A DNA stretch of 64,000 bases from NCBI GenBank assembly GCA_964459095.1, contig CAYWKL010000001.1, forward strand, positions 21,253 to 85,252. Direction: 5' to 3'. This DNA comes from an uncultured Gammaproteobacteria bacterium (GTDB taxonomy: Bacteria > Patescibacteriota > Microgenomatia > Daviesbacterales > UBA10151). The notes under the pieces are model-generated. The model worked only from the letters and a program-made list of their open reading frames with translations. It searched no databases and was not told where the DNA came from. Every line of letters starts with the position of its first letter. Within the stretch, counting starts at the first letter, position 1. Below, piece by piece: positions 2,331 through 34,923 of this stretch. The position numbers were made by a program, and so were the translations under genes.

Positions 2331-2332
2331 AT

Positions 2333-4395: not shown

Positions 4396-4399
4396 AACC

Positions 4400-5524: not shown

Positions 5525-5531
5525 AAAATAA

Positions 5532-16710: not shown

Positions 16711-16749
16711 TGCAGAAACCTATTGTATATTTTTTTAGCTGATTATCAA

Positions 16750-18003
16750 TCACCTTCTAAGGAGGATTATTGTAAGGATTGAAAGTATTATTAGCATAAT
16801 AAATGAAACCATCAACGAAACCATTATTACTTGTATTAAACTACTATGAAAATAAACTATTAAAATTATTTGAAGTAATGCTCCTATACAAGGGATAAAA
16901 ACAGTTTTAACTTTTCCTATTGATAAATTGAAATTTATTACTACCCAAGCTAGCGACAAAACAGTAATAAATAACCCATATGGAAGCAAAATCTGTGAAC
17001 CACTTAGGTAGGCTTTTCCAAAAAGAAGGGATATTGCTAAATCCGGAAATAAAAAATATATAAAAATAATGACCGAACTAAAAAATAATGTAATACCTAG
17101 TGTTAATAAAAAAACCTTAATGAATTTTTCATTATTTGAATTTTTCATCGAAATTATCGGAAACATTACTGAAGTAACTGGGGCAACTGCAAAGAAAATT
17201 ATTTTACCAAGGGAGGATACTGATGCGTAAATCCCTGCATTGAAACTATCAAAAAAATGCTTAACAAGAAGAACATCAGATGAGTAAAATGAAGTTAAGG
17301 TTATAAATTGCAAAAAGACCGGAATTGTATAAAGAAAGATAGATTTCATCTTTATTATAGAGTTTGATTTTTGAGTTCTCCTAATGTCTTTTAAGAAGTA
17401 AAAACTAAGTCCCCATCCAGCTATTGAGGCAATTAGAATCCCTAGTAAAGCTCCAAAAACTTTAAGTCCTAACAATACTAGTGCAAACCATAAAAAAAGT
17501 TTAATTAAAGTGTCAGAAAAAATACTTCCGACAAAAAGCCCGAACCTCAACATTCCTTGTAGGATTGCGCGATAAAATGCAGCCGGGATAAAGAAAAAAA
17601 ACCCAATTGAAACCAAATACAATAAAAAAGTATTATTAATATTTAAAAAGTCTGATATATTTGATGAAAAGATAGAAATTATAAATACTAAACCAAAACT
17701 TAAATAATAGATTTTTTTATTCAATAAGCTATAAATTAAGCGAATTTCATTTTTGCTTTTTGCTGATGATACAAATTTAACTATTACAAGGCTAAGAGAT
17801 TGCGGAAATATCGCCAAAATGGTTACCAAAGATATTAGAGCTGCAAGCACTCCATAATCAGAGGGTCCTAGCACTCTGCCCATAGTCATATGATAAATAT
17901 AATTAATTGCATTTGCGCCGTTGGTCCCAAGAACCATAATTAAACTACCTGAAAAAAAAGGGTGTCCAACCACTAGTAAAAAATTTTTCCTCATGATACC
18001 CAA
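16750..18003 (-). CDS. Wzx-like (MOP-superfamily) polysaccharide biosynthesis/flippase protein
   Basis: About 12 predicted helices. N-terminal 'GANAINYIYHMTMGRVLGPSDYGVLAAL' is typical of Wzx/RfbX. Confidence 0.6.
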   Translation of the reverse strand: MGIMRKNFLLVVGHPFFSGSLIMVLGTNGANAINYIYHMTMGRVLGPSDYGVLAALISLVTILAIFPQSLSLVIVKFVSSAKSKNEIRLIYSLLNKKIYYLSFGLVFIISIFSSNISDFLNINNTFLLYLVSIGFFFFIPAAFYRAILQGMLRFGLFVGSIFSDTLIKLFLWFALVLLGLKVFGALLGILIASIAGWGLSFYFLKDIRRTQKSNSIIKMKSIFLYTIPVFLQFITLTSFYSSDVLLVKHFFDSFNAGIYASVSSLGKIIFFAVAPVTSVMFPIISMKNSNNEKFIKVFLLTLGITLFFSSVIIFIYFLFPDLAISLLFGKAYLSGSQILLPYGLFITVLSLAWVVINFNLSIGKVKTVFIPCIGALLQIILIVYFHSSLIQVIMVSLMVSFIMLIILSILTIILLRR

Positions 18004-19151
18004 TATCCTCTAAAAAAAAGCGAACTTTCTATAAAGAGCAAAACTCCTGACACAATTATATATAAGAATCTAAAAAAGATTGGCAATTTAGCCAAAATTA
18101 TTCCTAAAAAAATAAAACCAGGGAAAAGGACTAGCACATAACGCGGAAGAGAAGAAAAACTACCTTGGAATGTTGGTACAATAAATCCTAATACCAAATA
18201 TATCATGTATTGGTAATTAATTTTTTTGACAAATCCAAATATGATTAAAAAAATAAAAAGTAGTGCGCTAATAAATTCCAAAATTATAGTTTGATAGATC
18301 ATATTCCATTGATTAATATTCAGAAGTATTCTTATATATCTAAATATTATCTGCGGTATGGTAACAATTCCTTGCTGATGTTGTTCCCCAACAATAAGTT
18401 GTTGGTTATAAAAGGCAAATGGATCTTGGGCAACAATAATAAGATTAATCATATATACGATTAATCCCAGTGGAATAATAAATATCCAAAAAAATTTAAA
18501 TCTATTTTTCCCAAAAAACTTTGGAACGAACGAAAAGAAAATTAATATCCCGAAAATTCTTGTTACAGATGCAAAAAGACCAAAAATTGATGAGTATAAC
18601 CACTTATTTTTCCTTGCCAAATAAAAAGAAACCAAAGTCAAAAATAGAAATAATGATTCAGAATATACTGCGCCAAAAAAAAATGAGGTAGGATATAAGA
18701 CTAAGCTCAAAACAGCCAAAAAAGCAATTTTTCTAGAATGATCAATTCTAATTAAATCATAAAGAACTATTAACGATAGCAAAAAGAACAAATTATTAAC
18801 TAATACTCCTATAAAAATCGGATAAAAGTAACTTGTGAAATCATTTACGATGAGTGGTTGTGATAAATAGCCAATCACCTTAGGATATAGAGGGAAGAAG
18901 GCATACTGTAGGGGTTTGTAACCATTAACTGCTATTGAAATAAAATGTTCTCCATCAAAGTTTGCCCAAGAAAAAAATTCTGGTAGAAGAGAGAAGTTTT
19001 TATATGTGCCGCCTAAAAACTTGTCTGTTGAGAAAATTGTCAAATATCTACTTGAGAAAAAGAGCGCTAAAAAAGTAATTAGTTTCCAGGAAAAAAAAAT
19101 TCCTAATATTGCCCAGAAATCAGATCTTATTTTTTTAATCTCCCAAAGCAT
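17991..19151 (-). CDS. Polytopic membrane glycosyltransferase-like protein, PIG-V/DUF2029-type (GT-C superfamily)
   Basis: 'WANFDGEHFISIAVNGY' resembles the conserved D-x-E-H/Y…IA..GY loop of PIG-V/GT87-type mannosyltransferases. The longest ORF starts at 19241. The internal Met at 19151 removes a 107-nt overlap with the upstream GT4. Confidence 0.45.
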   Translation of the reverse strand: MLWEIKKIRSDFWAILGIFFSWKLITFLALFFSSRYLTIFSTDKFLGGTYKNFSLLPEFFSWANFDGEHFISIAVNGYKPLQYAFFPLYPKVIGYLSQPLIVNDFTSYFYPIFIGVLVNNLFFLLSLIVLYDLIRIDHSRKIAFLAVLSLVLYPTSFFFGAVYSESLFLFLTLVSFYLARKNKWLYSSIFGLFASVTRIFGILIFFSFVPKFFGKNRFKFFWIFIIPLGLIVYMINLIIVAQDPFAFYNQQLIVGEQHQQGIVTIPQIIFRYIRILLNINQWNMIYQTIILEFISALLFIFLIIFGFVKKINYQYMIYLVLGFIVPTFQGSFSSLPRYVLVLFPGFIFLGIILAKLPIFFRFLYIIVSGVLLFIESSLFFRGYWVS

Positions 19152-20169
19152 ACTTATAAACCTCAATTGTTTCTTCTGTGCATCTGCTCCATGAGAATCT
19201 CTTAATATTCTCAAACCCCTTTTGTACGAGCTTCTTTGCAAGTCTTGGATCGCCTAAAAGTTTTCTTATCCCCTCTTCAATTGAGGAGGGATTGTATGGA
19301 TTAACATAAATTACACCTTCTCCTCCTACCTCTTTCATAGCTGATATTGGGCTTGTAATAACTGGAGTTCCGCAAGCTTGTGATTCAACAATAGGTAACC
19401 CAAACCCTTCATAAAATGATGCAAGAATAGTTATCTTTGCAAGATTAATTGTGCAGACCAAATCTTCAGTCGGCATAAATCCTTTAAGGTGTATTAATGG
19501 ACTTTCTTTAAACCTATCAAGAAACTTCTTATAAGAAGATAACTCTTTGTGTTCTGAAATTGTAGTAGTGAAACTGTTTCCTATCATTACTAAGTTAACG
19601 TTTGCCGACTCCGCGGCTTCTGCAATCCCATAAAGATTTTTATTCCAATTTATATCCCCATAATAAACAATGAATTCTGAAGGAAGGTTATATTTTTTTG
19701 AAACATTATCTAATTTATTTTGGCCCTCTATTTTAGTGAATTCTCTAGAAGGGGCAAGGTATATCGGAAATACCTTTTCTTCCTTTACTGACAATTTTTT
19801 TTCAATATCTTTTTTTGAGGAATAAGAATCTGTGATTATGCAGCTAACTTGTCTTAAAGATAGTTTCTGTCTTAAGAGATTAATGCCTCCTTTTATACCT
19901 TTGGGATAATGCTCTGGGAAGAGTAATGGAATCACATCATGTATTGTCACAACAATAGGGAAGTTTTTAAAAAGAGGCAGAGTGTGATTGAAAAAATCAA
20001 AGGTTGGGTAATGAACAAGATCAACTCTTCCTAGAGCAGACAAGTCCTCAAATTCAATTACTGAAATTTTTTTCTTTCTCAAATTTAGAATGAGATTTCT
20101 TGTATAGTTACCTATTCCTCTTTTATCATGACCCTCTTTTAAATTTCTAATACTTATACCAACTTTCAT
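19135..20169 (-). CDS. GT4-family glycosyltransferase
   Basis: 'EGFGLPIVESQACGTPVITS' E-x7-E motif. Confidence 0.85.
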   Translation of the reverse strand: MKVGISIRNLKEGHDKRGIGNYTRNLILNLRKKKISVIEFEDLSALGRVDLVHYPTFDFFNHTLPLFKNFPIVVTIHDVIPLLFPEHYPKGIKGGINLLRQKLSLRQVSCIITDSYSSKKDIEKKLSVKEEKVFPIYLAPSREFTKIEGQNKLDNVSKKYNLPSEFIVYYGDINWNKNLYGIAEAAESANVNLVMIGNSFTTTISEHKELSSYKKFLDRFKESPLIHLKGFMPTEDLVCTINLAKITILASFYEGFGLPIVESQACGTPVITSPISAMKEVGGEGVIYVNPYNPSSIEEGIRKLLGDPRLAKKLVQKGFENIKRFSWSRCTEETIEVYKYALGD

Positions 20170-21041
20170 TGTCTTAAATATCTGTAGTATGCCCTTGGGA
20201 ATCTTAATGAGGAAAAAAAAGAAAAAATAATTCCAGGAACTCCATCTAAAATCCCTTTATGCCTTATTAAAGTCATAAAAAACCAAACAGATGGTTTAAT
20301 TAAAAAGTAGTTAATTCCTTCAAAAATATTTTTTTGAACATGTTCACGAATAAGTTCATCTTTAATTAAATTTACATACCTAGAATTCCTATCAAGATAT
20401 CTTTTAAAGGTTGGGTCTGCAATATGAAGTAAGTCATTTTCTAACCAACCCACCTTTCCATTCACTACAATTTGCTCATGTACGCTTTTGCAAGGAAAGT
20501 ATGCTTTTCCTTTTTTTACCAACCTTATTACTCCATCCGGATAAACACCTCCGTACTTTAGAAAGCTTCCAAGAAAATAGTTTAGACGCGGTATAAAAAA
20601 TGCACAATATTCTTTAGTATCTTTGCCTATATTTCCATCTCTTTTCTCAAGCAAGGCTACATGTTCCCTGAATAATTTTCTTTTTTTTAATCCTTTCTCG
20701 TATTGATCAACTTCCTCATCTTTCATATTCAAAACCAAAATTATCTCTTTTCCTAAGGACTCAGTAACTCTTTCATCCGCATCAAGTTGCAGAATCCACT
20801 CATTAGTGGCTGCATCAAGTGCTTTTTGTTTGTTTATATGAAATATTGGTGGGTTTTCAGTCTCAATGATTTTTGCATTAAATTTCCTAGCAATTTCAAG
20901 AGTATGATCGCTAGATCCTCCATCAACAACAACGACTTCTGAGGCTATATTTTTTACTGAGCTCAAACATTCCTCTAGTGTTTTTTCTTCATTATAAACA
21001 GCAAGCACAATTGATAAATTTTTCATATTATTTAGCTGCAA
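20166..21041 (-). CDS. GT2-family glycosyltransferase (KdtX/WaaE-like)
   Basis: 'LSIVLAVYNEEKTLEECL…VVVVDGGSSDHTLEIA…QLDADERV'. Confidence 0.8.
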   Translation of the reverse strand: MQLNNMKNLSIVLAVYNEEKTLEECLSSVKNIASEVVVVDGGSSDHTLEIARKFNAKIIETENPPIFHINKQKALDAATNEWILQLDADERVTESLGKEIILVLNMKDEEVDQYEKGLKKRKLFREHVALLEKRDGNIGKDTKEYCAFFIPRLNYFLGSFLKYGGVYPDGVIRLVKKGKAYFPCKSVHEQIVVNGKVGWLENDLLHIADPTFKRYLDRNSRYVNLIKDELIREHVQKNIFEGINYFLIKPSVWFFMTLIRHKGILDGVPGIIFSFFSSLRFPRAYYRYLRQ

Positions 21042-22647
21042 TTAAATAAAAAGCCGTACCACCATCTGGAAAATAAACTATTTTCTTAATTTCAAAATCA
21101 TTTATGTATCTTAATCCATCATACTGACTTGAAGTAACTACATAAAGCCTTGCTGGTTGAGGAAAAACCTCAATTGGTTCCCAGTACTCAAATATATATC
21201 TGTCAAACGCGGAAACTAGATTAAAACTCCTAGTGTGTGAATTATTATACTCGACTTCTTTAACATATTCCTCTAATGGCTTTTTTGTATAGAAAAGGAA
21301 AAAAATATAAGGTTGTGATCTTACGTTGGTCATATAAACTTCTTTGTATTCTGGGTGTTTTTGTACATATTCAACAATTTGCTTCATACCATATTGCCAA
21401 TCTATAGCATACCTTTTTGCATATTCTGAATAATATTTTTGGCAATATTGATTAAAGTTCAAAAGAAAGAAGAATAAAAGTATAAAGCCTGTGATTATCT
21501 GAACCCAGCCCAATTTAGAAATGGTTAGGAACCTATAAATTCCGTAAGCCTCAATTATTTGCCAACTACCTAGAGAAAACATAGCTCTTGCCGCATGAGG
21601 TACTTCTGTACTAAATGAGGCAGCAAGGGGTGCAAGTATCGCTACAATTAAAATCACTAAGCCTGTTTTTTTTCTCGATAATAAAATTAGCACCGAACCC
21701 AAAATTAAAAAGGGTAGATCTAGCAAATAAAATTCTCCTGTTACTCGTGAGGATAATCTTGGATTTTTATCCCCATTTTTAAAAAGATAGTCGTAAGAAA
21801 AGTGTGATAAATAATTACTTAGAACTACGTTTACTTTTCCTAAACTTAAATTCTCGGTTTTAGAGAAAATATAAGTTTTTTTGGCTAAATCATCAGGTAT
21901 TAAGGTTTGCTTTGCTCGCGAAATTCCTAAAAGAGCTGGGTTAAAAAATACTACTCCTCCAATCAAAAATATTAAGATTAAACCAATTAATAAATCAGTC
22001 CTTTTGCTTTTTAGCTCATTGTAAAAAAGTACAAAAAGTAAAATTAAAACAATAGGGACAATAATTTTGGGACTATGATAACTTAAAAAGGTAACCCCAA
22101 AAGTAAGAAAAGAGAGCCCTAAAAATCCATTTTTTTTATCAAGGCCTTTAAAAAATAAATAAAGACTAAGCAGGAAAAAGAAAACTGTGAAGTTTAACTC
22201 ATGATTAAATCTTGAAAAATGAATAGCATATGGCGAGATGGCTAGCAGAAATGATGCTATTAGCCCTATTAAATTATTTTTAAAGACAACTCTTCCAAGA
22301 AAGAAAATTATTAAAACATTTAATGTCCCAAAAAATACTGAGGGCAATCTAACGCTAAGTTCTGAAAGCCCAAGGATCTTTACAAAAATAGCAGTTAAAT
22401 AAATATGAACAGGGTGCTTGTCATCCAAAAAGGAAATAAAATATGCTGGGAAGAAATTCCCTCTCTCATCTCTTCCATAACTCGCGATTGTCCATGCATT
22501 ATAACCTACTGCAGCCTCATCCCAGGAAATAGATGGAGGTACCTCTGTAATTTTATAAATCCTTACAATACCAGCAAAAGCAATAATAAGTATTAAAATA
22601 AACCAAACTTTATACTTAAAAACTTGTTCTAATTTATTCATATACAC
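21028..22647 (-). CDS. GT-C glycosyltransferase, PMT/ArnT-like (GT39/GT83-type), paralog 1
   Basis: N-terminal TM, then 'PPSISWDEAAVGYNAWTIASYGRDERGNFFP' (loop-1 DE motif). More than 10 helices. Soluble C-terminal domain. Confidence 0.7.
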   Translation of the reverse strand: MYMNKLEQVFKYKVWFILILIIAFAGIVRIYKITEVPPSISWDEAAVGYNAWTIASYGRDERGNFFPAYFISFLDDKHPVHIYLTAIFVKILGLSELSVRLPSVFFGTLNVLIIFFLGRVVFKNNLIGLIASFLLAISPYAIHFSRFNHELNFTVFFFLLSLYLFFKGLDKKNGFLGLSFLTFGVTFLSYHSPKIIVPIVLILLFVLFYNELKSKRTDLLIGLILIFLIGGVVFFNPALLGISRAKQTLIPDDLAKKTYIFSKTENLSLGKVNVVLSNYLSHFSYDYLFKNGDKNPRLSSRVTGEFYLLDLPFLILGSVLILLSRKKTGLVILIVAILAPLAASFSTEVPHAARAMFSLGSWQIIEAYGIYRFLTISKLGWVQIITGFILLFFFLLNFNQYCQKYYSEYAKRYAIDWQYGMKQIVEYVQKHPEYKEVYMTNVRSQPYIFFLFYTKKPLEEYVKEVEYNNSHTRSFNLVSAFDRYIFEYWEPIEVFPQPARLYVVTSSQYDGLRYINDFEIKKIVYFPDGGTAFYLIAAK

Positions 22648-24157
22648 TAAATATTGCTTTTCCGGAGAGATCTTTTATAGTTTTTGTCTTTTCTCTACTA
22701 CCAACGTATTCCCCTGGTTTAGCAAATATAATTAGTTTCTTGTCTTTCTCGTTTTCTAATTCACTCAAGTTAAAGGAGAAGTTATTAAAGCTTTTGACTA
22801 AAGAATGTCCCCATTTATCTGGAGGATTATATTCAACTGTTTTTTGGAACTTATCAGGAGGAAACTCTAAATAGTATAAAGCAAATATATAAGGTTGCCC
22901 TAAATAATCAGATATGAAGACTTTATCGTATTTTCTTAAATCAATACTCCCTTTAAATATTTCTTTATAAGGGTATTGCCAATCTAAAGAGGATCTTAAG
23001 TTGTAGTTTTTAATAAAATCATAAAAATAGGCGAAGAAAAAGATAGCATAAAAAAACAATACAACGCAGTAGAAAAATCTTAACTTGAAAGCATCCTTTA
23101 AATAAACAATTCCATAAGCAGTAATGATAGATATAAATGGTATAAATAAAATAGCCCTTAGGGCATGAGGCGATTCTTTGCTGATTGCCGCAGGAATTAA
23201 ACTCAAAAATAATATATAGAAAATTACACCTGACTTTTTTTGTTTTTGCTTAAGGACCGCAAAAATTCCCACCGAAATAAAAATAATATCTAGCAAATAG
23301 AGCATCCCTCCAAACCCTGTGTGGCTTCTTAAGTTTTTGTCTCCATTTGTAAAAAGAAAGTCAGGGCTCAAATCTGATAAATAGTTGGAAGTGAAATTAT
23401 ATAATACATTTACTGGACTATCTCCCTGGCTTAAAATACTGGTAGTCTTAAATCTTGAAGTTTGCTCAACGACATTTAACTTAAATGCAGGATAAAAAGA
23501 TATAAGAAATAATAAAAGAAGCAAGGGTAAGTAAACCAAACTCTTTCTATTTAAATTTTTAAGCCAACTAATAAAAACCCATATAAGAAAAAGGGGAGTA
23601 ATTATTCTAAAACTGTTATAGCTGTAAATGCTCGGTATAAAGGCAAGGATTGTTACTAATTTTACTAAGAAAGAATTTTTGGAGTTCAAAAAAGAAAAAA
23701 ATCCAAGACAAAAAAATGCTATACCTGCTGTTGCCTCAAAACCCGCTCTGCTCACTATAAAAAACCAAGGAGATATGGACAATAAAAAGGAAGATAAGAG
23801 TCCTATTTTTTCTCCCTGTTTTGTAAATAGTTTCCGGCAAATTAAAATAATTAACATCATTGTTGCAAATGCATATAAACTTGCAGGAACTCTTACAGAC
23901 CATTCATTTAAGCCGAAAAGTTTTACAAAAAAGGCAACTGAGTAAATATAAACAGGTAATTTAAATTCACCAAATGCTCTAAAATGGACTGGTAAAAATT
24001 TACCCCACTCATCTTTTAGACTCTCTGATATAGAATAAGCATTATATCCAATGGATGCTTCGTCCCAGTACAAGGAGGCAGGTATTTGAGGTAAAAATAT
24101 TAATCTTGTTGAAAGAAAGAAGAGAGTTATTAAAAAAAATGCTATTTTTATTTTCAC
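22634..24157 (-). CDS. GT-C glycosyltransferase, PMT/ArnT-like, paralog 2
   Basis: 'PASLYWDEASIGYNAYSISESLKDEWGKFLP'. Same architecture as 21028..22647. Confidence 0.7.
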   Translation of the reverse strand: MKIKIAFFLITLFFLSTRLIFLPQIPASLYWDEASIGYNAYSISESLKDEWGKFLPVHFRAFGEFKLPVYIYSVAFFVKLFGLNEWSVRVPASLYAFATMMLIILICRKLFTKQGEKIGLLSSFLLSISPWFFIVSRAGFEATAGIAFFCLGFFSFLNSKNSFLVKLVTILAFIPSIYSYNSFRIITPLFLIWVFISWLKNLNRKSLVYLPLLLLLFLISFYPAFKLNVVEQTSRFKTTSILSQGDSPVNVLYNFTSNYLSDLSPDFLFTNGDKNLRSHTGFGGMLYLLDIIFISVGIFAVLKQKQKKSGVIFYILFLSLIPAAISKESPHALRAILFIPFISIITAYGIVYLKDAFKLRFFYCVVLFFYAIFFFAYFYDFIKNYNLRSSLDWQYPYKEIFKGSIDLRKYDKVFISDYLGQPYIFALYYLEFPPDKFQKTVEYNPPDKWGHSLVKSFNNFSFNLSELENEKDKKLIIFAKPGEYVGSREKTKTIKDLSGKAIFSVYE

Positions 24158-25807
24158 TTAATTTTCAACAATTTCAAAAGCTATATCTCCATTTAGAAAA
24201 TTTATAGTTTTAAGTTTTTCTTTTCTAGAAAAATCTCCATATTTACCAATAAAGAGGATTTTTTTATCTGGATACTTTTTTACAATATCTGCATATGTAG
24301 TCCCTTTATCAGCTAAATCAGGAAAATAGAACTTGTCAAAATTTAAAACTCTTATCCAATCGTAAGTTTCAAATCTATTTAAGTTAGGATCATTTTGAAA
24401 CTTACTTGGGTCATATTTAGAAAAAAATAAAGTAAACATGTGTGGCTCGCCGTAATGTCTAGAGAATACAATTAGGTCGTAGTTCTCTTTATTTCGATTT
24501 ATATAATCCACAACCTGTTTATAACCATACTGCCAATCCCTTGAATATCTTGTTGAGTACAAACCGTAGTAAAGATAAAAATAGTATCCAATAGAAATAA
24601 TGAGAATAAATATAGTAAAAAAAATAGATGCAAGAAATAGTCTGCTTTTTCTAAATATCCAACCAAAAAATATTGATAGACCATAGGCTGTAAGTACTGA
24701 ATAAGCTGGAGCTACAATAAGAGTCCTTAAAGCATGAGGGGTACTATCGTTTGTTACCGATACTGGAATAATTCCTAAAAGTATCCAAGAAAAAATAAAA
24801 AAAGCAAATCTCTCTCTTCTTTTTACAAGAAAATATACTCCTAATAAAATGAATGGTGCTTGAAAAAGAAAAAGTTCACCCATTCTCTGAACATGGTGTT
24901 GTTTATGAGGTGCTCCGCTAATAAACAAAAAGTCAGGTGTGAAGTGGGCTAAATAATTTGAAATGAAATATAAACTAACATACGTGACTCTGTTATGGAT
25001 TAAAACGGGGAGCGGATCAGGCAGATTTGAATTTCCTCTTGCTTCATTAATCCTGGGAACCAACCCTGGATCATCTGTGATACTTACGAGTTTATATCTA
25101 GCACTCCCTTCCCCACTTAAAACAAAAGGGATCATCGGAATCAAAAGAATAAAAAAAAGTACTAAACTTATTAAAAAATATTTTTTGTAATTTATTAAAT
25201 ATTTAAAATAAAATGTCCAGTTAGCTAAAAGAAATAGCGGAGTAAAAACTCTTGCGCTATTGTAGGTATACAAAGAGATTGCCAGCGGTATACTCGAGAC
25301 TACTAGGTATTTACTTTTAGAAAAACCTTTAATTAATAGCCAAAAACCCAAGAGGATCCAGAATATAGAGAAAGACGATTCAAAAGAAGCTCTTGTTAGG
25401 TGTATATGCCAAGGAGAGATACTTAATAAAAATGCAGAAATTAATCCTATTTCAAATTTTTTAAATAACTCTTTAGTGAGAAGAAAAATTAGTAAAACGC
25501 TAAGAGTCCCATAAACTACAGGTGTAATTCTAACACCAAGTTCATTTAACCCAAATATCCAAATTCCTGGAATTGAAAAATAAATTTGAACAGGAAGTTT
25601 GTACTCACCATAAGATTTAAAATGCAGTGGAAAAGATACTCCCCATTCGTCTTTTCCAGTCTTTAGAATTGAATAAGCATTGTATCCTATAGATACTTCA
25701 TCCCAGTTTAAAGACGGAGGAATCTCAGCAACTTTATATATTCTTAGAAATAAGGCTAAAAAAAGAATAAATGAAAGAAAAAATATTGTTATTTTGGTTC
25801 GTTGCAT
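24158..25807 (-). CDS. GT-C glycosyltransferase, PMT/ArnT-like, paralog 3
   Basis: 'PPSLNWDEVSIGYNAYSILKTGKDEWGVSFP'. Confidence 0.7.
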   Translation of the reverse strand: MQRTKITIFFLSFILFLALFLRIYKVAEIPPSLNWDEVSIGYNAYSILKTGKDEWGVSFPLHFKSYGEYKLPVQIYFSIPGIWIFGLNELGVRITPVVYGTLSVLLIFLLTKELFKKFEIGLISAFLLSISPWHIHLTRASFESSFSIFWILLGFWLLIKGFSKSKYLVVSSIPLAISLYTYNSARVFTPLFLLANWTFYFKYLINYKKYFLISLVLFFILLIPMIPFVLSGEGSARYKLVSITDDPGLVPRINEARGNSNLPDPLPVLIHNRVTYVSLYFISNYLAHFTPDFLFISGAPHKQHHVQRMGELFLFQAPFILLGVYFLVKRRERFAFFIFSWILLGIIPVSVTNDSTPHALRTLIVAPAYSVLTAYGLSIFFGWIFRKSRLFLASIFFTIFILIISIGYYFYLYYGLYSTRYSRDWQYGYKQVVDYINRNKENYDLIVFSRHYGEPHMFTLFFSKYDPSKFQNDPNLNRFETYDWIRVLNFDKFYFPDLADKGTTYADIVKKYPDKKILFIGKYGDFSRKEKLKTINFLNGDIAFEIVEN

Positions 25808-27378
25808 ATTTTAGAGGCATTTACTTTGTATGCAGTTAATCTATCATAACCGGAAATATCCTTGACTTCAAATTCATATTTGAGATTATGAATCCTTGCC
25901 TGAATATCTGATATTGCTACATTATCCCCTACTAACATGATCTTGCTTTTGCAATCAGCAATTTTCCAGTCAATTGGCTTAAACTTGATATTATTGACGG
26001 TATATATTTCATATACTTTCACGTCTTTCGAATAGTAGGGACTCTCAAGTTGAGAACGAAGCTCTTTTTGTAAATTTTTAGGGTCAAAACTGGTTAAATA
26101 TGCTAATCTTAATCCTGCACCAGGGTCTCGGGCTGAATCTATAATTATTTTGTAATCCTTGTATTTATTTAATTTTTGGAATAGGGAAAGGTAAACATTT
26201 CCATAATCTTTTGCCCGTTCATACTTAAATAAAATAAAATACGAGAAATAAAATGACACCAGGGATTGAATTACGATAAGGATTAATACCGCAAATCCTA
26301 TTTTGCCTGGAAAATATTTAATGATTTTAAAAAAACCTAAAGATATGATAAGTGCGAATATCCAAATAGATTCTAGAGCTCTGAGTGGATAATAACTGTC
26401 CCCAGTTAGCGCTGCAGAAACTGGAGTAATAATTATTAAGATTAAAACTAGCTTAAAAAATTTTTTGTTTAGTGACTCTCTTAAGCTTTTAATACCAAAA
26501 ATAAATGGAATAATAAATATCGTGTAAAAAACCCCAAGTGTTGGCGGCATTCTCCCGAGTGCTGATCCCAAGTCAAAGAACAAATTTCTAGGTGAAAAAT
26601 AGATTAAATATCTTTTTATAAATTCTCCCAAAAAAGAGTGTGTCGTTCCTAAATATCCGACCTCAACTAAACGCCTAGTTAAAGCTCCCGTTGTCAAAAG
26701 AAAAAGGTGCGGCATCATTAAAATGATAAACGCGAATAAACCTAAAATTAGTCCTTTTTTATGTTTAAGGAAATACTGTCTAAAAAGAAAAATGAAACTA
26801 GGTAGAAAGAGTAAGCTTATAATTCTCTCACTGTAGTAAGCATGAGTTGATAAAGCAAGAAGAGTTGTAGCAACCACAAAAAACCAAATTTTTCTTAAGG
26901 AAAGGGTAAAAAATAAAAGACTGCTAACAAAAAATAAAACTCCCAAATTCCCTTCAGCAACCAAACGGCTAAAATATATAGACCAGGGAGAAATCGCAAT
27001 AATAAGTGATGAGATAAGCGCTAGCTCTTGTCTTTTTTTAACGCTAAATAGCTCTAAGCTCAAAAAGTAAGTAATTAGAACCAACAACGTACCTGCTAGA
27101 GCAGAAACAGATCTTGCGGACTCTACTCTGTTTCCAAATATTGAAATTGGAATGGTTGCAAAATAAGTATATAACGGAGGCTGGTAGGACCCGAATGATC
27201 TAAAAAGTAAGGGGAAAGGTTGTCCATATCTATCTTTACCAGACTGCATTAGAGAAAACGCGTTATATCCATGTGACTCTTCATCCCTGTGGATTCCAGC
27301 AGGAATCTCTCCCAGCTTATAAAATCTCAGTGAAAAAGCAAGAATAAGTATAAACGACAAAAGGATTTTTGATTTCAT
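25789..27378 (-). CDS. GT-C glycosyltransferase, PMT/ArnT-like, paralog 4
   Basis: 'PAGIHRDEESHGYNAFSLMQSGKDRYGQPFP'. Confidence 0.7.
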   Translation of the reverse strand: MKSKILLSFILILAFSLRFYKLGEIPAGIHRDEESHGYNAFSLMQSGKDRYGQPFPLLFRSFGSYQPPLYTYFATIPISIFGNRVESARSVSALAGTLLVLITYFLSLELFSVKKRQELALISSLIIAISPWSIYFSRLVAEGNLGVLFFVSSLLFFTLSLRKIWFFVVATTLLALSTHAYYSERIISLLFLPSFIFLFRQYFLKHKKGLILGLFAFIILMMPHLFLLTTGALTRRLVEVGYLGTTHSFLGEFIKRYLIYFSPRNLFFDLGSALGRMPPTLGVFYTIFIIPFIFGIKSLRESLNKKFFKLVLILIIITPVSAALTGDSYYPLRALESIWIFALIISLGFFKIIKYFPGKIGFAVLILIVIQSLVSFYFSYFILFKYERAKDYGNVYLSLFQKLNKYKDYKIIIDSARDPGAGLRLAYLTSFDPKNLQKELRSQLESPYYSKDVKVYEIYTVNNIKFKPIDWKIADCKSKIMLVGDNVAISDIQARIHNLKYEFEVKDISGYDRLTAYKVNASKICNEPK

Positions 27379-27381
27379 AAT

Positions 27382-28029
27382 TTATGCAAAATATTTCTTA
27401 AAAGAACCTAGAGTATAAATTATCCCAAGACTAATAATAGAAACAATCACAGGAAAAAGCGCGATTGGTCCAAAATTATTTCCTATATCTGTAAGACCAG
27501 AAATCAATATAATTAGGGAAAAAGAAGCGGCTAGCCACTTATTAAGAAATGTGAGTAAGTAAAATGCTCCAACAAGTGCAAAGGGAAGAAAAAGTAATGG
27601 AAATTTAGAGGGAAAGTAGTTTTCGATGTCAAATAGCCTTGCTTCATTATTAAAATACTTAACCAAAGGAGGCCTTGTTTTGTTTATGTAGAAAACAAAA
27701 AGTCTATTACTTGCAAAATAAAAATCAAATTCCTTAAAAAAGTATTGATATCTATCTTTAATTTGAATTTCTTCAAGCTCTGAATTTCTAAAAATGCTTT
27801 GATCTGAAAAGTTATATAGTAAGTAACCCAAAAGAATTAAAAACAAACTACAGATCAAAAATACCCTGAATTTGGATATTTTTTTATTTACTAAGAAACT
27901 TAGTAAAGAATAGCTTAGTAGTAGGCTAGCTAGTCCTTGGAATAAATTAATTTTAAAGATCACAAAAAACCAAGATGTAAAAAAGCAAACTGTAATAACA
28001 AGAAGTACTAAAAAAAATTCTTTTCTCAT
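27382..28029 (-). CDS. Small integral membrane protein, function unknown
   Basis: Hydrophobic 215-aa ORF. The longest ORF (to 28101) overlaps upstream by 73 nt. The Met at 28029 gives a 1-nt stop/start overlap. Confidence 0.4.
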   Translation of the reverse strand: MRKEFFLVLLVITVCFFTSWFFVIFKINLFQGLASLLLSYSLLSFLVNKKISKFRVFLICSLFLILLGYLLYNFSDQSIFRNSELEEIQIKDRYQYFFKEFDFYFASNRLFVFYINKTRPPLVKYFNNEARLFDIENYFPSKFPLLFLPFALVGAFYLLTFLNKWLAASFSLIILISGLTDIGNNFGPIALFPVIVSIISLGIIYTLGSFKKYFA

Positions 28030-29450
28030 TAAATTACAAAAAGTCGCCAAATAAAGGGAAGATGCAGTTTTGAAAGGAATGTTTGAGGTCCTAAAATGCA
28101 CTCAGCTCCTTGACAAGAGATTTCATAATGAGAGTAAATATATTTAATATTAAAATAAAATCCTGTGATAATAACGAAGATTAATATTAATCTTATTAGA
28201 TTCTTTAAAAAGGAGGCTTTTAATATCTCGTTTATTATTGAAGGAAAAAGTAGAAAGCCCAAAGTCAACCTAAAACCCAGTGGCTGGATGTTTGGATTAA
28301 AGGCATTAACCAGTAAACTTCTTCCCCCAAGGAGCATACCAACTGCAATAAAAGAGGTAAAAAAATTTGCTTTTTTTATTAAATAAATAAGACCCCAACT
28401 TCCCATAATTGAAAGAAACGGAAAAAGAGGATACCTATACCAGGCAAGTAAATCACCTTCGCCTCCTGAAATCATAATTATAATAAGCCAATAAACAAAA
28501 CTAAAAGGGATTATTATTAGCTTTTTTGAAGGAGGAGAAAAAATAAAGTAAACTGCACAGAGTAGAGTAAAAACATACCAACTATCAGTAAGGGTTGTCC
28601 AGTCATAAGATGGAGAAGTAAAAAACCAAGCTAAACTTTTAAATCCAACTGGTCTAAAAGATTGAACTGAAGTAATTTTCCAGAAGATTTCTGCATCGAA
28701 ATAAATCCCATATGCAAAGAAAATTAAAATAAAAGGGATTGTAGAAAAAAAAATATAAATTGCATTTCTTATCATTCTTTGTTCAAAAAGGATAAATAAT
28801 ACCAAGGGCATAATAAAAAAGCCTGTGGGTTTTGCAAGTCCTGCAACACCACAAAGAACTGGGATTGGAAGAAGATAAATCTTTTTTCTTTGGTCCTTAA
28901 ATTTTATTAATAAAAAAATTATAATTATTAAAGATAACGCAATTAGATTTTCAGGAACTGCCATTCTTGAACTTAAAACAAATATAGGAACAGTTCCATA
29001 AATCAACATAGATAGTATTCCAACCCAAAAGTAAGTTAATTTTTTGGCAACTAAAAAAATAAAAATTGAAGTAAGGGTAGAAATAAATATAACTGGAAAC
29101 CTTATAAATGCTGTGGGGATCCAATCTGTCCTATCAGCTTTATAAAAATGACCAAACCATCCCACTAAAAGAGAAAAAAGAGGTGGCTCATCAAGCCAAG
29201 GTTTATAAAGTGACACTCCCCCTTTTGGAAGTCCTCCTTTATAATCAATCGTTCCCCTAAAAACTTCTGCCTTTTTTGGATAATCCAGAGTTGACCAAGA
29301 AACGGGAACTCCGGTTTCAACAAGGTAAATCCCTGACCAACCATAGAGCATTTCCTCAAGATTTCCCATAAAAGGGGATCTTTCATAATTGTGCGCTCTT
29401 AAAATAAATGTAAATATAAATGCCAATAAAAATATCACAATTTTTATCAT
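28029..29450 (-). CDS. Polytopic membrane protein, divergent GT-C-like
   Basis: '…KPWLDEPPLFSLLVGWFGHFY' acidic loop motif. 'GLAKPTGFF'. About 11 helices. Confidence 0.45.
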   Translation of the reverse strand: MIKIVIFLLAFIFTFILRAHNYERSPFMGNLEEMLYGWSGIYLVETGVPVSWSTLDYPKKAEVFRGTIDYKGGLPKGGVSLYKPWLDEPPLFSLLVGWFGHFYKADRTDWIPTAFIRFPVIFISTLTSIFIFLVAKKLTYFWVGILSMLIYGTVPIFVLSSRMAVPENLIALSLIIIIFLLIKFKDQRKKIYLLPIPVLCGVAGLAKPTGFFIMPLVLFILFEQRMIRNAIYIFFSTIPFILIFFAYGIYFDAEIFWKITSVQSFRPVGFKSLAWFFTSPSYDWTTLTDSWYVFTLLCAVYFIFSPPSKKLIIIPFSFVYWLIIIMISGGEGDLLAWYRYPLFPFLSIMGSWGLIYLIKKANFFTSFIAVGMLLGGRSLLVNAFNPNIQPLGFRLTLGFLLFPSIINEILKASFLKNLIRLILIFVIITGFYFNIKYIYSHYEISCQGAECILGPQTFLSKLHLPFIWRLFVI

Positions 29451-29466
29451 TTTATTAATTTTATCT

Positions 29467-30216
29467 TTATTTTAAGTTAGAGTAATATTTAAATTTAATA
29501 ATTTTATATTTATGTAATTTGTAAAAGAATAAATACAAAAAAGTCTCTAAAATAAATTTAATTCCTTTTATAACTTTTATTGAGGAGGCTTTATCATGAT
29601 ACCTAGTAGGAATAGGAATTTCTCCAATTCTAAAACCATGACTAAGTGAAGAAAAGACCATTTGTTGATCAAAAACAAAATCATCAGAAAAATTTTTAAA
29701 TGGCACTGTTTCCAAAACTTTTCTAGAATATGCCCGAAAACCTGAAAAGTGCTCAGTAAAATTAACTCCTAAAATGATATTTTCAAAAAAACAAACTAGC
29801 CGATTTATGAAATATTTAAGTTTAGGCATTCCACCCTGCAGGGCTGAAATTTTACTTTGTATTCGACTTCCAAACATAAAGTCAAATCTTCTTTGAATTA
29901 TTGGCCTGATTAATTCTTTTATTAAACGAGCGTCATATTGGTAATCTGGGTGAAGCATTACTACTATCCCAGCCTTTTCTTCTAAGGCCTTTTCATAGCA
30001 TGTTTTTTGATTACCTCCATAACCTAAATTTTTTTTATGAGTTAGTACTTTTATCCCTAAACCTTTCGCAACATCAACAGTATTATCTGTGCTTTTATCA
30101 TCAACAAGAAGTATGTTTTGTGATAAGTTTTTTGGGATCTCATTAAAAGTGTCTTGTAGTGTGCGCGCAGCATTATAGGCTGGCATAACGATTATTACTT
30201 TGCGAAAATTTCTCAT
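29467..30216 (-). CDS. GT2 DPM1/GtrB/ArnC-like polyprenyl-phosphate sugar synthase
   Basis: 'VIIVMPAYNAARTLQDTFNEIPKNL…ILLVDDKSTDNTVDVAKGLGIKVLTHKKNLGYGGNQKT'. Confidence 0.75.
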   Translation of the reverse strand: MRNFRKVIIVMPAYNAARTLQDTFNEIPKNLSQNILLVDDKSTDNTVDVAKGLGIKVLTHKKNLGYGGNQKTCYEKALEEKAGIVVMLHPDYQYDARLIKELIRPIIQRRFDFMFGSRIQSKISALQGGMPKLKYFINRLVCFFENIILGVNFTEHFSGFRAYSRKVLETVPFKNFSDDFVFDQQMVFSSLSHGFRIGEIPIPTRYHDKASSIKVIKGIKFILETFLYLFFYKLHKYKIIKFKYYSNLK

Positions 30217-31850
30217 AATTTTATAGCATAAAAAGCTGGCTCTTTATTATAAAAGTAAAAGGTTTTAAGAATTTTATTTTTTTCAACACTCTTTATAGGA
30301 ATGCTCCAAGAACTGGCAATAACTAAAGTATTTTTATTTTTTTTATCTTCTCCCCAATTTAGTTTCCTTATAGAGAATTTATCAAAAAGGACTTCTCTTT
30401 CTTTTTTCCCTAACTTATATTCATTTTGCATTTTTTGCGGGTTTAGTTTTCCATAATAGGCCAGATAATAATGTGCGCCTGTGCCAATTCTGGGACTTAC
30501 GTCCCCATATTCTGGGTCAAAAATAATTTGGTTGAAACTGCTATAGTTTGCCCAAATAAATAGTGATACTTCTTTAAAGGGATATTGCAAATCTTGGGAT
30601 TTTTCTCTTGGGTAATTAACAAAGTAAATCATTAGAAAGAAGCCAAAGTTCAAAAGAATTAGAACAGGAATTAATATATATATTGGATACCTAAACTTAA
30701 TTTTTTTTTCTTTTAAAATATTAAAGGCAAAATAAAATCCACAAGCTGATATTATATTTAGCATAGTAAATACCATTATGCTTCTGTGGGGGCTGTGAGC
30801 CTCAAAAGTTAGGCCGCTTGGTATTGTTCCAAGAATTACCCAAGCAAGGATAAATTTTTTTGCGCTAGAAAAATTGCGTAATTTAATCAAATAAATTAAT
30901 CCTAAAATAAAAAAAGGAAATTGCAGAAAATACAAAGGGCCTGAGTCAATTAACCCCTGATTGGTAAGATCAAGTCCGTCTACAAATAAAAAAGTCGGAT
31001 TAAATTGGATCAATAATCTATTAAAACTATACTTGATGATCATTAATTTTTCTTGTACGTAGCTTATTTCTGGGTTTTTTTGTTTGACAAACTGAATTAG
31101 TTCTCCAAGTACTGGATCTTGAGTTATAAACACTGTTTTCGATCTGTATTGTGCATTCGGATTTGTTAAAATAATCAGATAAAGAGGCATTAACAAAAAT
31201 AAAAAGACAAGTATTGGCCAAAAGAAAATCTTTAAATTGTAAGAGGGTTGATTTCTAAAAATTAGAATAAAGGAAATAATCACTAATGGAATAATTAGCG
31301 CATGCGAAAAGTAAGTATACATTGCTAAAGCTAATAGTCCAAAACCAAAATAAAGACTAACTCTTTTTTTAGAAAGTAAAAGACCAAAACCCAAAAGCAT
31401 AAAAAAAATTCCTGCTCCGTTTTCAAAACTTTTGCGTGAAAAAAATATTTCGAAAGGTGCTATAGCAGTAAAAAAGCTGGCTATTAGAGCTACCCGATTA
31501 TTTCTTAATAGCTTAGTAACAAAAAAGTACACTGCAAAAATGTTTAAACTCCCAAAAATTGCTGCTGGAATCCTAATGGTAATTTCTCCTCCACCTAAAA
31601 GAAAAAAGATGGGTACTGTTATATAAGTATAAAAAGGAGATTTGTAATCATTAACTGAAGTAAAAATTGTAGGTAGGAAATTACCATATATATCTTTTCC
31701 GGTTTGCGCTATAGATATAGCATCATAAAGTTGTGTTACCTCATCATGATTTAGTTGTATAGGAAACTCTCCTAACTTGTAAAATCTTAAAAAAACTCCC
31801 AGTAGAAAAATTAATACTAAAATTAAAAATTCTTTGTTCAGTTTAAGCAT
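30213..31850 (-). CDS. GT-C glycosyltransferase, PMT/ArnT-like, paralog 5
   Basis: 'PIQLNHDEVTQLYDAISIAQTGKDIYGNFLP'. Confidence 0.7.
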   Translation of the reverse strand: MLKLNKEFLILVLIFLLGVFLRFYKLGEFPIQLNHDEVTQLYDAISIAQTGKDIYGNFLPTIFTSVNDYKSPFYTYITVPIFFLLGGGEITIRIPAAIFGSLNIFAVYFFVTKLLRNNRVALIASFFTAIAPFEIFFSRKSFENGAGIFFMLLGFGLLLSKKRVSLYFGFGLLALAMYTYFSHALIIPLVIISFILIFRNQPSYNLKIFFWPILVFLFLLMPLYLIILTNPNAQYRSKTVFITQDPVLGELIQFVKQKNPEISYVQEKLMIIKYSFNRLLIQFNPTFLFVDGLDLTNQGLIDSGPLYFLQFPFFILGLIYLIKLRNFSSAKKFILAWVILGTIPSGLTFEAHSPHRSIMVFTMLNIISACGFYFAFNILKEKKIKFRYPIYILIPVLILLNFGFFLMIYFVNYPREKSQDLQYPFKEVSLFIWANYSSFNQIIFDPEYGDVSPRIGTGAHYYLAYYGKLNPQKMQNEYKLGKKEREVLFDKFSIRKLNWGEDKKNKNTLVIASSWSIPIKSVEKNKILKTFYFYNKEPAFYAIKL

Positions 31851-33430: not shown

Positions 33431-33441
33431 CTTTTATCAAC

Positions 33442-34920: not shown

Positions 34921-34923
34921 TTA

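Follow-up and report, generated by a model that had tools for sequence, protein, structure and literature searches.

We found that the four neighbouring open reading frames (ORFs) at positions 21028-27378 of the 64,000-nucleotide stretch analysed here (the window), designated A to D, encode distinct GT-C glycosyltransferases. C, B and A fall into three separate orthogroups and form a fixed trio kept across Microgenomates, a group of ultra-small uncultured bacteria, while D is accessory. The source is itself an uncultured Microgenomates bacterium, probably related to Daviesbacteria, and the genes lie in a giant cluster that probably serves the building of cell-surface glycans. Judged from sequence, all four are predicted to be catalytically competent, and they are probably distinct enzymes of an extracytoplasmic assembly line producing a surface glycan whose core is conserved and whose decorations vary between lineages. 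The four genes are:

21028-22647, minus strand: A, 539-aa GT-C glycosyltransferase, third in the C-B-A trio (PMT_2, E = 5e-16)
22634-24157, minus strand: B, 507-aa GT-C glycosyltransferase, second in the trio (PMT_2, E = 1.2e-07)
24158-25807, minus strand: C, 549-aa GT-C glycosyltransferase, first in the trio (Pfam PMT, 27.4 bits; cut-off 22.7)
25789-27378, minus strand: D, 529-aa accessory GT-C glycosyltransferase (PMT_2, E = 6.6e-09)

The number, lengths and shared strand of the ORFs agreed with the original prediction, and the overlaps of 14, 0 and 19 nt that it gave for the A/B, B/C and C/D junctions were reproduced using the longest ORFs. The B-to-A overlap is 8 nt, not 14, if A begins at the ATG at codon 3, while the 19-nt overlap of C with D is firm because C has a single possible start.

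Among 78 orthologous loci of Microgenomates (Daviesbacteria, Woesebacteria and Shapirobacteria), ~60 have the order C-B-A, with B sitting between C and A. The median gap was -4 nt from C to B and -8 nt from B to A, and the gaps at these two junctions were zero or negative in 83-93%. The exact order C-B-A-GT2-GT4-PigV was present in 41/78 loci, and the same gene order was recovered in independent assemblies from many studies. Together with a second GT4, the core genes downstream of C-B-A are:

20166-21041, minus strand: GT2 (Pfam Glycos_transf_2), following A in nearly all loci with 45-66% identity
19135-20169, minus strand: cytoplasmic GT4 of GT-B fold (Pfam Glycos_transf_1), position conserved across loci
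17991-19241, minus strand: PIG-V-like GT-C, mannosyltransferase-type (Pfam Mannosyl_trans2, 33.9 bits; cut-off 22.4), position conserved
16750-18003, minus strand: Wzx-like flippase (Pfam Polysacc_synt and Polysacc_synt_3), position conserved
15964-16710, minus strand: gt2_15, GT2 of polyprenyl-phosphate sugar synthase type (best NCBIfam match PpgS, near full-length and below the equivalog cut-off), position conserved

The last of these, gt2_15, may make the lipid-linked donor on which the core module draws.

In line with their earlier description as PMT/ArnT-like paralogs, all four proteins passed the Pfam gathering score for PMT_2 or PMT (the PMT matches being A and C), and hhalign revealed near full-length homology among them (against C: A, E = 1e-103; B, 2e-107; D, 4.5e-61). 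The predicted loop-1 pattern, P..[LI].[WR]DE...GYNA[WYF][ST], was found in A, B, C and D. Its C-terminal companion, 'Y.F.L[FY]...EYN', held as written for A and B and had no match in C or D; the C-terminus is a small alpha/beta domain, most divergent in D. Orthogroups A, B, C, D, F and I all retain the D-E pair that follows TM1, along with R22, D53, R93, R139, E143, Y182, R237, R361 and K430 (C numbering). An AF2 model of C (pLDDT 80, pTM 0.82) was matched by Foldseek to the solved GT-C structures of STT3/AglB/PglB (E ~1e-8), ArnT (1e-6) and Pmt4 (2e-4), and also resembled ALG9, DPY19 and AftB, with modest TM-scores (0.44-0.55) and large rmsd. With C as query, phmmer found nothing among PDB chains up to an E-value of 1, hence no PMT.

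In a neighbour-joining tree of 104 proteins (50 bootstraps), A, B and D each formed a clean clade (42-50/50 bootstraps). The A orthogroup was monophyletic (16/16 members; bootstrap 50/50), as were those of B (19/19; 42/50) and D (10/10), and one clade took in all 19 true C orthologs. C is the best-conserved trio member, with ortholog identities of 55-66% for Daviesbacteria and Woesebacteria and ~50% for Shapirobacteria, and B the fastest-diverging, with only 50-51% identity to the closest relatives. Of the explanations first offered for the paralogy, a diversification of donor or acceptor specificity fits best, since each paralog forms a separate orthogroup, is intact and keeps its catalytic residues across Microgenomates.

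D lies directly upstream of C in just 6/78 loci. The two closest relatives (L085 and L086) lack it here and have no counterpart of segment 25770-28035. The segment also covers most of a further gene:

27382-28101, minus strand: m27, 239-aa polytopic membrane protein (7-TM; ~7 hydrophobic peaks)

There was no Pfam match for m27, and tblastn located homologs directly upstream of a D ortholog in 10 other loci. D stands outside the conserved core, with m27 and D forming an accessory cassette.

Approximately 20 GT-C-fold genes occupy roughly half of the 64-kb window. Further copies had been predicted at 30213, 33442, 40966 and 55747, and all are PMT_2 proteins with the DE pair; EEE in loop 1 of the 31838 copy was likewise confirmed. 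The named copies are thus real, but the earlier tally was too low, as PMT_2 also occurs at 28029-29450, 58007-59503 and 60228-61373 (plus strand). The genes upstream of D and m27 are:

28029-29450, minus strand: E, accessory GT-C (Pfam PMT_2)
29467-30216, minus strand: gt2_29, GT2 of DPM1/AglJ/PpgS type (NCBIfam AglJ, 1.9e-21; PpgS, 2.9e-19; both below cut-off)
30213-31850, minus strand: F, accessory GT-C (Pfam PMT_2)
31838-33430, minus strand: G, accessory GT-C (Pfam PMT_2)
33442-34920, minus strand: H, accessory GT-C (Pfam PMT_2)
36875-38362, minus strand: L, GT-C gene, a BLAST relative of K
40966-42582, minus strand: I, GT-C gene (PMT_2)
42579-44567, minus strand: U1, GT-C gene (GT-C fold in the predicted model)
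44560-47982, minus strand: U2, GT-C gene
47975-49453, minus strand: second flippase, among the GT-C genes
49481-50752, minus strand: U4, GT87-like (Pfam GT87 matched by 15/27 orthologs)
50742-55750, minus strand: YfhO/PTPS_related trio of GT-C genes
55747-57276, minus strand: J, GT-C gene (PMT_2)
58007-59503, minus strand: K, GT-C gene (PMT_2)
60228-61373, plus strand: twelfth Pfam PMT_2 gene of the window
62386-63567, minus strand: GT2 fused to a GtrA/DPMS transmembrane domain

GT2 and GT4 genes are interspersed among the GT-C genes of 36875-59503. E, F, G and H each form their own orthogroup, found in only 19-35 of the loci. The best PDB sequence match of gt2_29, which is 60-72% identical in other loci, was the Pyrococcus furiosus dolichol-P-mannose synthase 5mlz, and this GT2 may make donors used by the accessory GT-Cs. 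Matches of the GT2s to polyprenyl-phosphate sugar synthases all fell under the NCBIfam equivalog cut-offs, the best being PpgS, AglJ, PgfS and ArnC for gt2_15, gt2_29, gt2_57 and gt2_59, respectively.

We propose that a lipid-linked oligosaccharide would be begun in the cytoplasm and flipped outward, and that the C-B-A trio and the PIG-V-like enzyme may then lengthen it stepwise, one linkage each. Translated from overlapping or abutting frames, C, B and A would have as partners the GT2, GT4, PIG-V-like GT-C, Wzx-like flippase, PpgS-like GT2 and second GT4. Each GT-C would act on the outside of the cytoplasmic membrane, moving sugar from a polyprenyl-phosphate-sugar donor that neighbouring DPM1/GtrB/PpgS-like GT2 enzymes would make on the cytoplasmic face. 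The likely product is a surface glycoconjugate with a core glycan common to Microgenomates, to which D (with m27) and the accessory GT-Cs E-L may attach lineage-specific decorations, a logic akin to that of a conserved core bearing a variable outer glycan. Within the window we recognized no priming phosphoglycosyltransferase and neither an LCP ligase nor one of WaaL type, so the proposed pathway is without its start and end genes.

The building of mycobacterial arabinan by several GT-Cs is established, as is three-component extracytoplasmic glycosylation, whose systems have been defined (PMC11127046). The mycobacterial embCAB and arabinan/LAM set (EmbA/B/C, AftA-D, PimE, MptA-C; donor synthases Ppm1 and PpgS) likewise has GT-C paralogs arranged in tandem within a single operon, where each serves a different acceptor or linkage. 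As in our proposal, GT2-type synthases supply its polyprenyl-phosphate sugar donors and cytoplasmic GT4 steps precede extracytoplasmic GT-C steps. It also joins GT87 (PimE-like) and PMT_2-type enzymes, and the window has a GT87-like gene and PpgS-like GT2s; AftA, AftB and AftD are fold matches of window proteins. In contrast to Emb, the proteins here are non-GT53 (A-D had no Pfam Arabinose_trans match) and have the small C-terminal domain instead of Emb-type carbohydrate-binding modules, and the GT-C genes are gathered in one locus of a very small genome rather than spread over 4.4 Mb.

The ER-lumenal ALG3/9/12/6/8/10 and GPI PIG-M/V/B pathways, with DPM1/ALG5 and the RFT1 flippase, follow the same order of cytoplasmic GT4/GT2, MOP-type flippase and serial GT-C paralogs using lipid-phosphate sugars. 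The window has PIG-V-like and PIG-M/GT87-like genes and the C model matches the ALG9 fold, but the likeness is in pathway design only, sequence similarity being marginal; for the en-bloc transferase of an ALG-type pathway, U1 is a candidate at fold level only. Three-component systems (GtrA/GtrB/GtrC, ArnC/ArnEF/ArnT, CsbB/GtcA/YfhO, GT136) pair a GT-C transferase with a flippase and a GT2 that synthesizes the polyprenyl-phosphate sugar, and are mirrored here by the recurrent GT2/GT-C neighbours, the GT2-GtrA fusion and the YfhO-like genes. However, such systems use one GT-C to place single side-branch residues onto a finished polymer, whereas here 3-4 GT-Cs form a coupled series that is inherited together with GT4s and a Wzx-like flippase, suggesting that the enzymes build the chain itself.

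A possible, if doubtful, alternative is that A-D are PMT-kind protein O-glycosyltransferases, each acting on Ser/Thr of its own secreted or surface proteins (such as pilins or S-layer proteins), in which case the C-B-A trio might be a hetero-oligomer comparable to Pmt1-Pmt2 or EmbA-EmbB. It keeps this standing because the closest sequence families, PMT and ArnT, act on protein and lipid A, not on growing glycans. Eukaryotic PMT1/PMT2 (GT39) and bacterial Pmt have the Pfam PMT/PMT_2 domain and loop-1 Asp-Glu motif in common with A-D. PMT paralogs work as heterodimers, which would suit a coupled trio, and the conserved overlapping junctions suit stoichiometric co-production of subunits. In addition, the leading Foldseek matches of C are protein-modifying oligosaccharyltransferases, and PgfS, matched by nearby gt2_57, makes the donor for protein glycosylation in a streptococcal system. 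Against this, Pfam found neither MIR nor PMT_4TMC domains in A-D, Foldseek placed Pmt4 below the oligosaccharyltransferases and ArnT, and no acceptor protein is evident. Moreover, the trio sits with a Wzx-type flippase, GT4s and PIG-V-like and GT87-like GT-Cs, typical of lipid-linked glycan assembly and not of protein modification by single sugars, and the ~20 GT-Cs of this one locus far exceed the need of any known protein O-mannosylation system.

We consider it rather improbable that the proteins are ArnT-like modifiers placing single sugars or amino sugars on a membrane lipid or on a polymer of the cell wall, in the way that lipid A, teichoic acid or O-antigen side branches are modified, each an independent three-component system for surface-charge or antigenic variation. 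ArnT (5ezm, E = 1e-3) was the sole PDB sequence match of the C profile, but the match is marginal and covers residues 68-224 only. Homologs carry the database label 'Ara4N transferase-like', the window contains amino-sugar genes (two DegT aminotransferases and one acetyltransferase) alongside the ArnC-like GT2, and the m27-D cassette and GT2/GT-C pairs resemble self-contained modules. Yet Pfam identified no ArnA, ArnD or ArnE/F-type domains in the window, and the strict co-inheritance of C-B-A and its coupling with GT4s and a flippase in different lineages point to one pathway, not independent modifiers. LPS is reported absent from this bacterial group, which also counts against such a role.

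The genes had also been read as a tandem duplication array, perhaps a phase- or recombination-variable repertoire, with a collapsed or expanded repeat as the artefact to be considered. Pairwise identity among the paralogs was 27-36% (BLAST), against 43-60% for orthologs from other Microgenomates lineages of phylum level, so the duplications are older than the Microgenomates radiation. A-D are true but very old paralogs, born by duplication, and the four-gene block is composite rather than a recent array. No DNA repeat longer than ~70 nt linked any of the copies, which excludes an assembly artefact and leaves no shared repeats to recombine on; within 21028-27378 there were no slippage-prone homopolymer tracts of nine or more bases or simple-sequence tracts. 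Despite the head-to-tail layout, the varying gene content upstream of C and the unusually deep divergence of B even between close relatives, a recent, variable or artefactual origin is therefore highly improbable, the more so as conserved orthologs of every single paralog occur in ~70 species and gene order is identical in independent assemblies.

Variation between lineages is by gain and loss of accessory genes; G, F and gt2_29, for example, are missing from L085. Across relatives, the orthologous 21.6-kb loci contained 6 PMT_2-type and 9 GT-C-type ORFs (medians), indicating that a GT-C-rich locus is a lineage-wide trait.

ORF calling confirmed the four minus-strand genes that the original prediction had read as a tandem array of PMT/ArnT-like paralogs, here named A to D. 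They are listed with m27, the gene beside D.
21028-22647, minus strand: A, 539 aa
22634-24157, minus strand: B, 507 aa
24158-25807, minus strand: C, 549 aa
25789-27378, minus strand: D, 529 aa
27382-28101, minus strand: m27, membrane protein of 239 aa, ~7 hydrophobic peaks, unmatched in Pfam

Transcription runs D, C, B, A. Using the longest ORFs, we reproduced the predicted junctions, with overlaps of 19 nt at D/C, 0 nt at C/B (TAA, then directly GTG) and 14 nt at B/A, the last shrinking to 8 nt when A starts at its ATG. G+C content of the region is ~30%, and a scan of positions 15000-34999 returned fewer promoter-like sites than in shuffled sequences and only weak terminators. For all four proteins the PMT_2 or PMT score clears the Pfam gathering cut-off, and each has 9-12 hydrophobic peaks, consistent with polytopic GT-C enzymes (~9-13 helices plus a PMT profile). 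Profile comparison aligned A, B and C over nearly their full length and D over its membrane domain and part of its C-terminal domain, which upholds the homology of the paralogs. The predicted loop-1 motif matches all four, while the C-terminal motif as written holds in A and B but not in C and D. The further copies predicted in the window are genuine PMT_2 genes, but their count was too low: PMT_2 also matches at 28029-29450 (E), 58007-59503 (K) and 60228-61373 (plus strand), and BLAST relates a gene at 36875-38362 (L) to K.

We used an AF2 model of C (pLDDT 80, pTM 0.82), in which a helical membrane domain is followed by a small alpha/beta C-terminal domain, for structural comparison. Foldseek against the PDB placed only GT-C enzymes at the top, with fold matches at probability 1.0 and TM-scores of 0.44-0.55; these included STT3, AglB and PglB (E ~1e-8), ArnT (1e-6), ALG9, Pmt4, DPY19 and, as a weak match, AftB (E 5.6e-3). 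A, B, C and D all carry the Asp-Glu pair that follows TM1. This pair and a number of Arg, Glu, Tyr and Lys residues are conserved across the orthogroups of these four genes and of two further GT-C genes, F (30213-31850) and I (40966-42582); judged by these residues, no paralog appears to have lost its catalytic function. From the model and the positive charge of the N-terminus, the Asp-Glu motif probably faces outward. A polyprenyl-phosphate-linked sugar is the putative donor, with DPMS/PpgS-like GT2 genes adjoining as context.

A-D are new members of a known family, and their features argue against placing them among the canonical PMTs or ArnT. PMT (GT39) proper was rejected, since Pfam matches neither MIR nor PMT_4TMC in any of the four. 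ArnT (GT83) proper was also rejected: a C-ortholog profile searched against PDB sequences gave ArnT 5ezm as its sole match, marginal (E 1.2e-3) and confined to residues 68-224, and the single C sequence matched nothing in the PDB, ArnT included. The window also lacks formyltransferase/decarboxylase, deformylase and ArnE/F-type domains, containing only DegT aminotransferases and ArnC-like GT2s from the Arn context. Membership of the Emb/Aft family (GT53/GT85) was discarded because no Arabinose_trans or related Pfam family matches A-D and a C-terminal-domain profile found nothing among PDB sequences at E up to 10. The 'WQYG[YM]K' motif that follows the final TM helix in A, B and C may correspond to the OST WWDYG motif; the same profile search, used to look for this, gave no match.

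The paralogs are old, with pairwise protein identities among A, B, C and D of only 27-36%. A repeat search across positions 9000-61000 returned only short AT-rich matches, none shared as DNA repeats between paralogs, which leaves mis-assembly or recombination no similar DNA to work on. Together, these results rule out an assembly artefact or recent duplication, and the collapsed or expanded repeat raised as a caveat to the array finds no support. Phase variation was ruled out as well, since neither homopolymers of ≥9 bases nor simple-sequence repeats occur within 21028-27378. The suggestion of a phase- or recombination-variable repertoire therefore fails, with neither the slippage repeats nor the near-identical DNA segments of a contingency locus being found.

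We then compared the quartet with orthologous loci. Protein C has >5,500 homologs, those with names belonging to Candidatus Daviesbacteria and other Microgenomates members. A scan of one genome per species identified 342 loci encoding a C relative, the best 80 of which come from Daviesbacteria, Woesebacteria and Shapirobacteria and from Microgenomates or Patescibacteria bins. ORFs were called in 84 loci and each was assigned to its best-matching window protein. Median ortholog identity was 60% for C, 45% for A, 44% for B and 43% for D, in each case exceeding that to any paralog. Neighbour joining of 104 PMT_2 proteins recovered separate orthogroups, with clean clades for A (16/16), B (19/19) and D (10/10), and also for I and the GT-C genes G (31838-33430) and H (33442-34920), at bootstraps of 42-50/50. 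For C, 19 true orthologs formed one clade and four 'C-like' proteins another. Under a very strict criterion, only 2 columns are constant within each of A, B and C yet different in all three. Clustered at 50% identity, the wider subfamily counts 12,270 representatives at E ≤1e-3 and 3,075 at 1e-30.

Gene order sets C, B and A apart as a conserved trio. Of 78 loci, 41 have the exact order C-B-A-GT2-GT4-PIG-V-like and ~60 have C-B-A, with median gaps of -4 nt from C to B and -8 nt from B to A; 83-93% of these junctions overlap or abut. Because these gaps recur across loci, the overlapping junctions are a conserved feature of the trio. The gene upstream of C varies among the 78 loci, being E in 15, F in 14, I in 11 and a DPM1-like GT2 in 9; D occupies this place in only 6. 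The multi-copy arrangement also recurs in relatives, where the medians per orthologous locus of 21.6 kb are 6 PMT_2-type and 9 GT-C-type ORFs; the multi-GT-C design is thus a lineage trait rather than a peculiarity of one genome.

D is accessory to the trio and forms a two-gene cassette with m27. In the closest relatives found, loci L085 and L086, whose C is 83-84% identical to that of the window, C comes straight after E, and similarity to the window DNA ends at 28036 and restarts at 25769, leaving the m27 and D segment without counterpart. L085 also lacks G, F and the GT2 gene adjoining them (29467-30216). In ten other loci, an m27 homolog lies immediately upstream of the D ortholog, so that the pair, absent together in L085 and L086, behaves as a cassette at differing places. 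As these contigs were viewed over only ~21 kb, D may exist elsewhere in the two genomes.

Divergence within the trio is uneven. Between the window and L085, identity is 81% for the downstream GT2, 79-80% for the PIG-V-like protein, 81% for C and 64% for A; B is only 50-51% identical to its counterparts (L085:11647-13164 and L086:8397-9914), with neighbouring genes at 77-86%. Both dN (0.41) and dS (2.96) of B are raised against neighbours such as C (0.11 and 1.30). Comparison of B between the window and its close relatives revealed no sharp recombination breakpoint of the kind the original prediction had proposed to look for, and these values hint that B may be an older allele introduced by recombination. 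The dN/dS ratios suggested as a further check could be computed and are all <0.25, but they are unreliable because dS against the closest relative (0.5-3.0) is at or near saturation, which makes loop-specific positive selection undetectable.

The quartet lies in a minus-strand run at ~9.4-60.2 kb, a glycan-assembly supercluster flanked on one side by amino-sugar nucleotide genes and on the other by a GT2-GtrA fusion. The window contains ~20 genes of the GT-C fold, occupying ~32.8 kb of 64 kb by summed coordinates; 12 are Pfam PMT_2 genes, to which L is added. Other features of the window, including the genes U1-U4, are as follows.
856-6653, plus strand: amino-sugar nucleotide cassette (GFO/IDH/MocA oxidoreductase, hexapeptide acetyltransferase, two DegT aminotransferases, epimerase/dehydratase, hexapeptide-GT2 fusion)
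6666-9401, plus strand: F5/8 type C (discoidin)-domain protein, 911 aa
9396-9935, minus strand: DUF5667 protein
11682-12851, plus strand: SGNH/GDSL-type hydrolase or perhaps an O-acetyltransferase, inside the cluster but on its opposite strand
13946-15967, minus strand: U3, 673 aa, sharing 40% identity across 385 aa with the extracellular N-terminal region of U2
17991-19241, minus strand: PIG-V-like GT-C, by Pfam
42579-44567, minus strand: U1, 662 aa, no Pfam match
44560-47982, minus strand: U2, 1140 aa, its C-terminal part U1-like and forming with U1 a conserved family that matches nothing in Pfam and is annotated as 'hypothetical' throughout
49481-50752, minus strand: U4, 423 aa, no Pfam match of its own; close orthologs match GT87 (PimE-type) in 15/27 and PIG-M in 9/27
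50742-55750, minus strand: three tandem YfhO/PTPS_related paralogs, 30-36% mutually identical, with overlapping junctions
60228-61373, plus strand: short PMT_2 protein, 381 aa, adjoining the GT2-GtrA fusion
62386-63567, minus strand: GT2 fused to a GtrA/DPMS transmembrane domain, a putative donor synthase and flippase in one protein

The YfhO/PTPS_related genes are a second ancient tandem GT-C trio, which recurs in Woesebacteria-type loci. Comparing U1 and U4 with GT-C profiles by hhalign gave no clear answer for either, and their classes were settled by fold for U1 and by the Pfam matches of its orthologs for U4, which is accordingly a predicted GT-C of mannosyltransferase type. U4 occurs twice in tandem in many related loci. 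In its AF2 model (pTM 0.88), U1 adopts a GT-C fold that most resembles the OST catalytic subunits STT3 and PglB, with DPY19, AftA and AftD also matched, and its C-terminal domain alone matches the globular domain of AglB-S2; a profile search found no OST among PDB sequences. An invariant 'AWYDTGY' in this domain presumably resembles the OST WWDYG motif. Because U3 matches the N-terminal part of U2, the latter appears to be a U3-like domain fused to a U1-like GT-C; the position of U3 in L085 also holds a 672-aa gene.

Interleaved with the GT-C genes are nine small GT2s, three GT4s and two Wzx-like flippases. Four of the GT2s best match polyprenyl-phosphate sugar synthases (AglJ, PpgS, PgfS and ArnC), and one of these four also matches the dolichol-P-mannose synthase 5mlz. 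The classes that would make up a three-component extracytoplasmic glycosylation system, a GT2 polyprenyl-phosphate sugar synthase, a flippase and a GT-C, all occur in the window, but the GT2 matches all fall below equivalog cut-offs and the only GtrA domain lies 35 kb away. Neither a priming enzyme nor a ligase was recognised in the window. The amino-sugar cassette suggests that the product contains a di-N-acylated amino sugar.

The model that we favour, and consider probable, is an extracytoplasmic assembly line. A lipid-linked glycan would be begun by cytoplasmic GT4 and GT2 enzymes and exported by a Wzx-like flippase; GT2 synthases would load single sugars onto polyprenyl phosphate, and the GT-Cs would add these outside the membrane, one linkage each. 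C, B, A and the PIG-V-like enzyme would make a core common to Microgenomates, while D and other patchy GT-Cs would add lineage-specific decorations. Family, fold, catalytic motif, orthology, synteny and coupling are directly supported, and we infer the donor, topology, order of action and product. The enzymology of extracytoplasmic systems offers a framework, and mycobacterial LAM/arabinan, where several GT-Cs act on one polymer, a precedent (PMC11127046) to which we liken the window.

Three other readings were weighed. Protein O-glycosylation by a hetero-oligomeric PMT-like enzyme would suit the PMT-type Pfam matches and the coupled trio, and is set against the missing MIR and PMT_4TMC domains and the lack of a recognisable acceptor; we regard it as rather unlikely. 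Less likely still is a ~60-kb Microgenomates-wide supercluster whose ~20 GT-Cs (PMT_2, YfhO-like, PIG-V-like, GT87-like and the Pfam-less U1/U2 family, OST-like in predicted fold and C-terminal domain) would build a large lipid-linked glycan outside the membrane, with its transfer en bloc to protein or wall and C-B-A as an obligate hetero-oligomeric core enzyme. Bacteria with genomes of ~1 Mb would then possess an equivalent of the ER dolichol pathway or of mycobacterial LAM. ArnT-like enzymes that modify a lipid or wall polymer independently of one another, a reading compatible with the marginal ArnT sequence match and set against the missing Arn context, are improbable.

Ultra-small Patescibacteria, Microgenomates among them, carry genomes of ~1 Mb from which many biosynthetic pathways are missing, and are believed to live on other cells. 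That about half of a 64-kb window encodes GT-C enzymes, and that related genomes keep the C-B-A core, implies a central place in their biology for an elaborate surface glycan, conserved in some parts and variable in others, with possible roles in attachment, host recognition or phage defence. In the literature searched, which was incomplete, we found no relevant description of GT-C expansions in Microgenomates/CPR, and the conserved trio and the GT-C density in a very small genome appear to be undescribed in searchable literature. With three enzymes, a donor synthase and a flippase, the trio is a tractable target, and its reconstitution could reveal the surface display of an unculturable lineage.

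At least nine distinct, stable orthogroups are concealed behind the annotation labels 'GT39 family' and 'ArnT-like'. Many public records with a Microgenomates-type locus (L005, L006, L009 and others) are titled 'uncultured Gammaproteobacteria bacterium', which appears to be a placeholder or mislabel.
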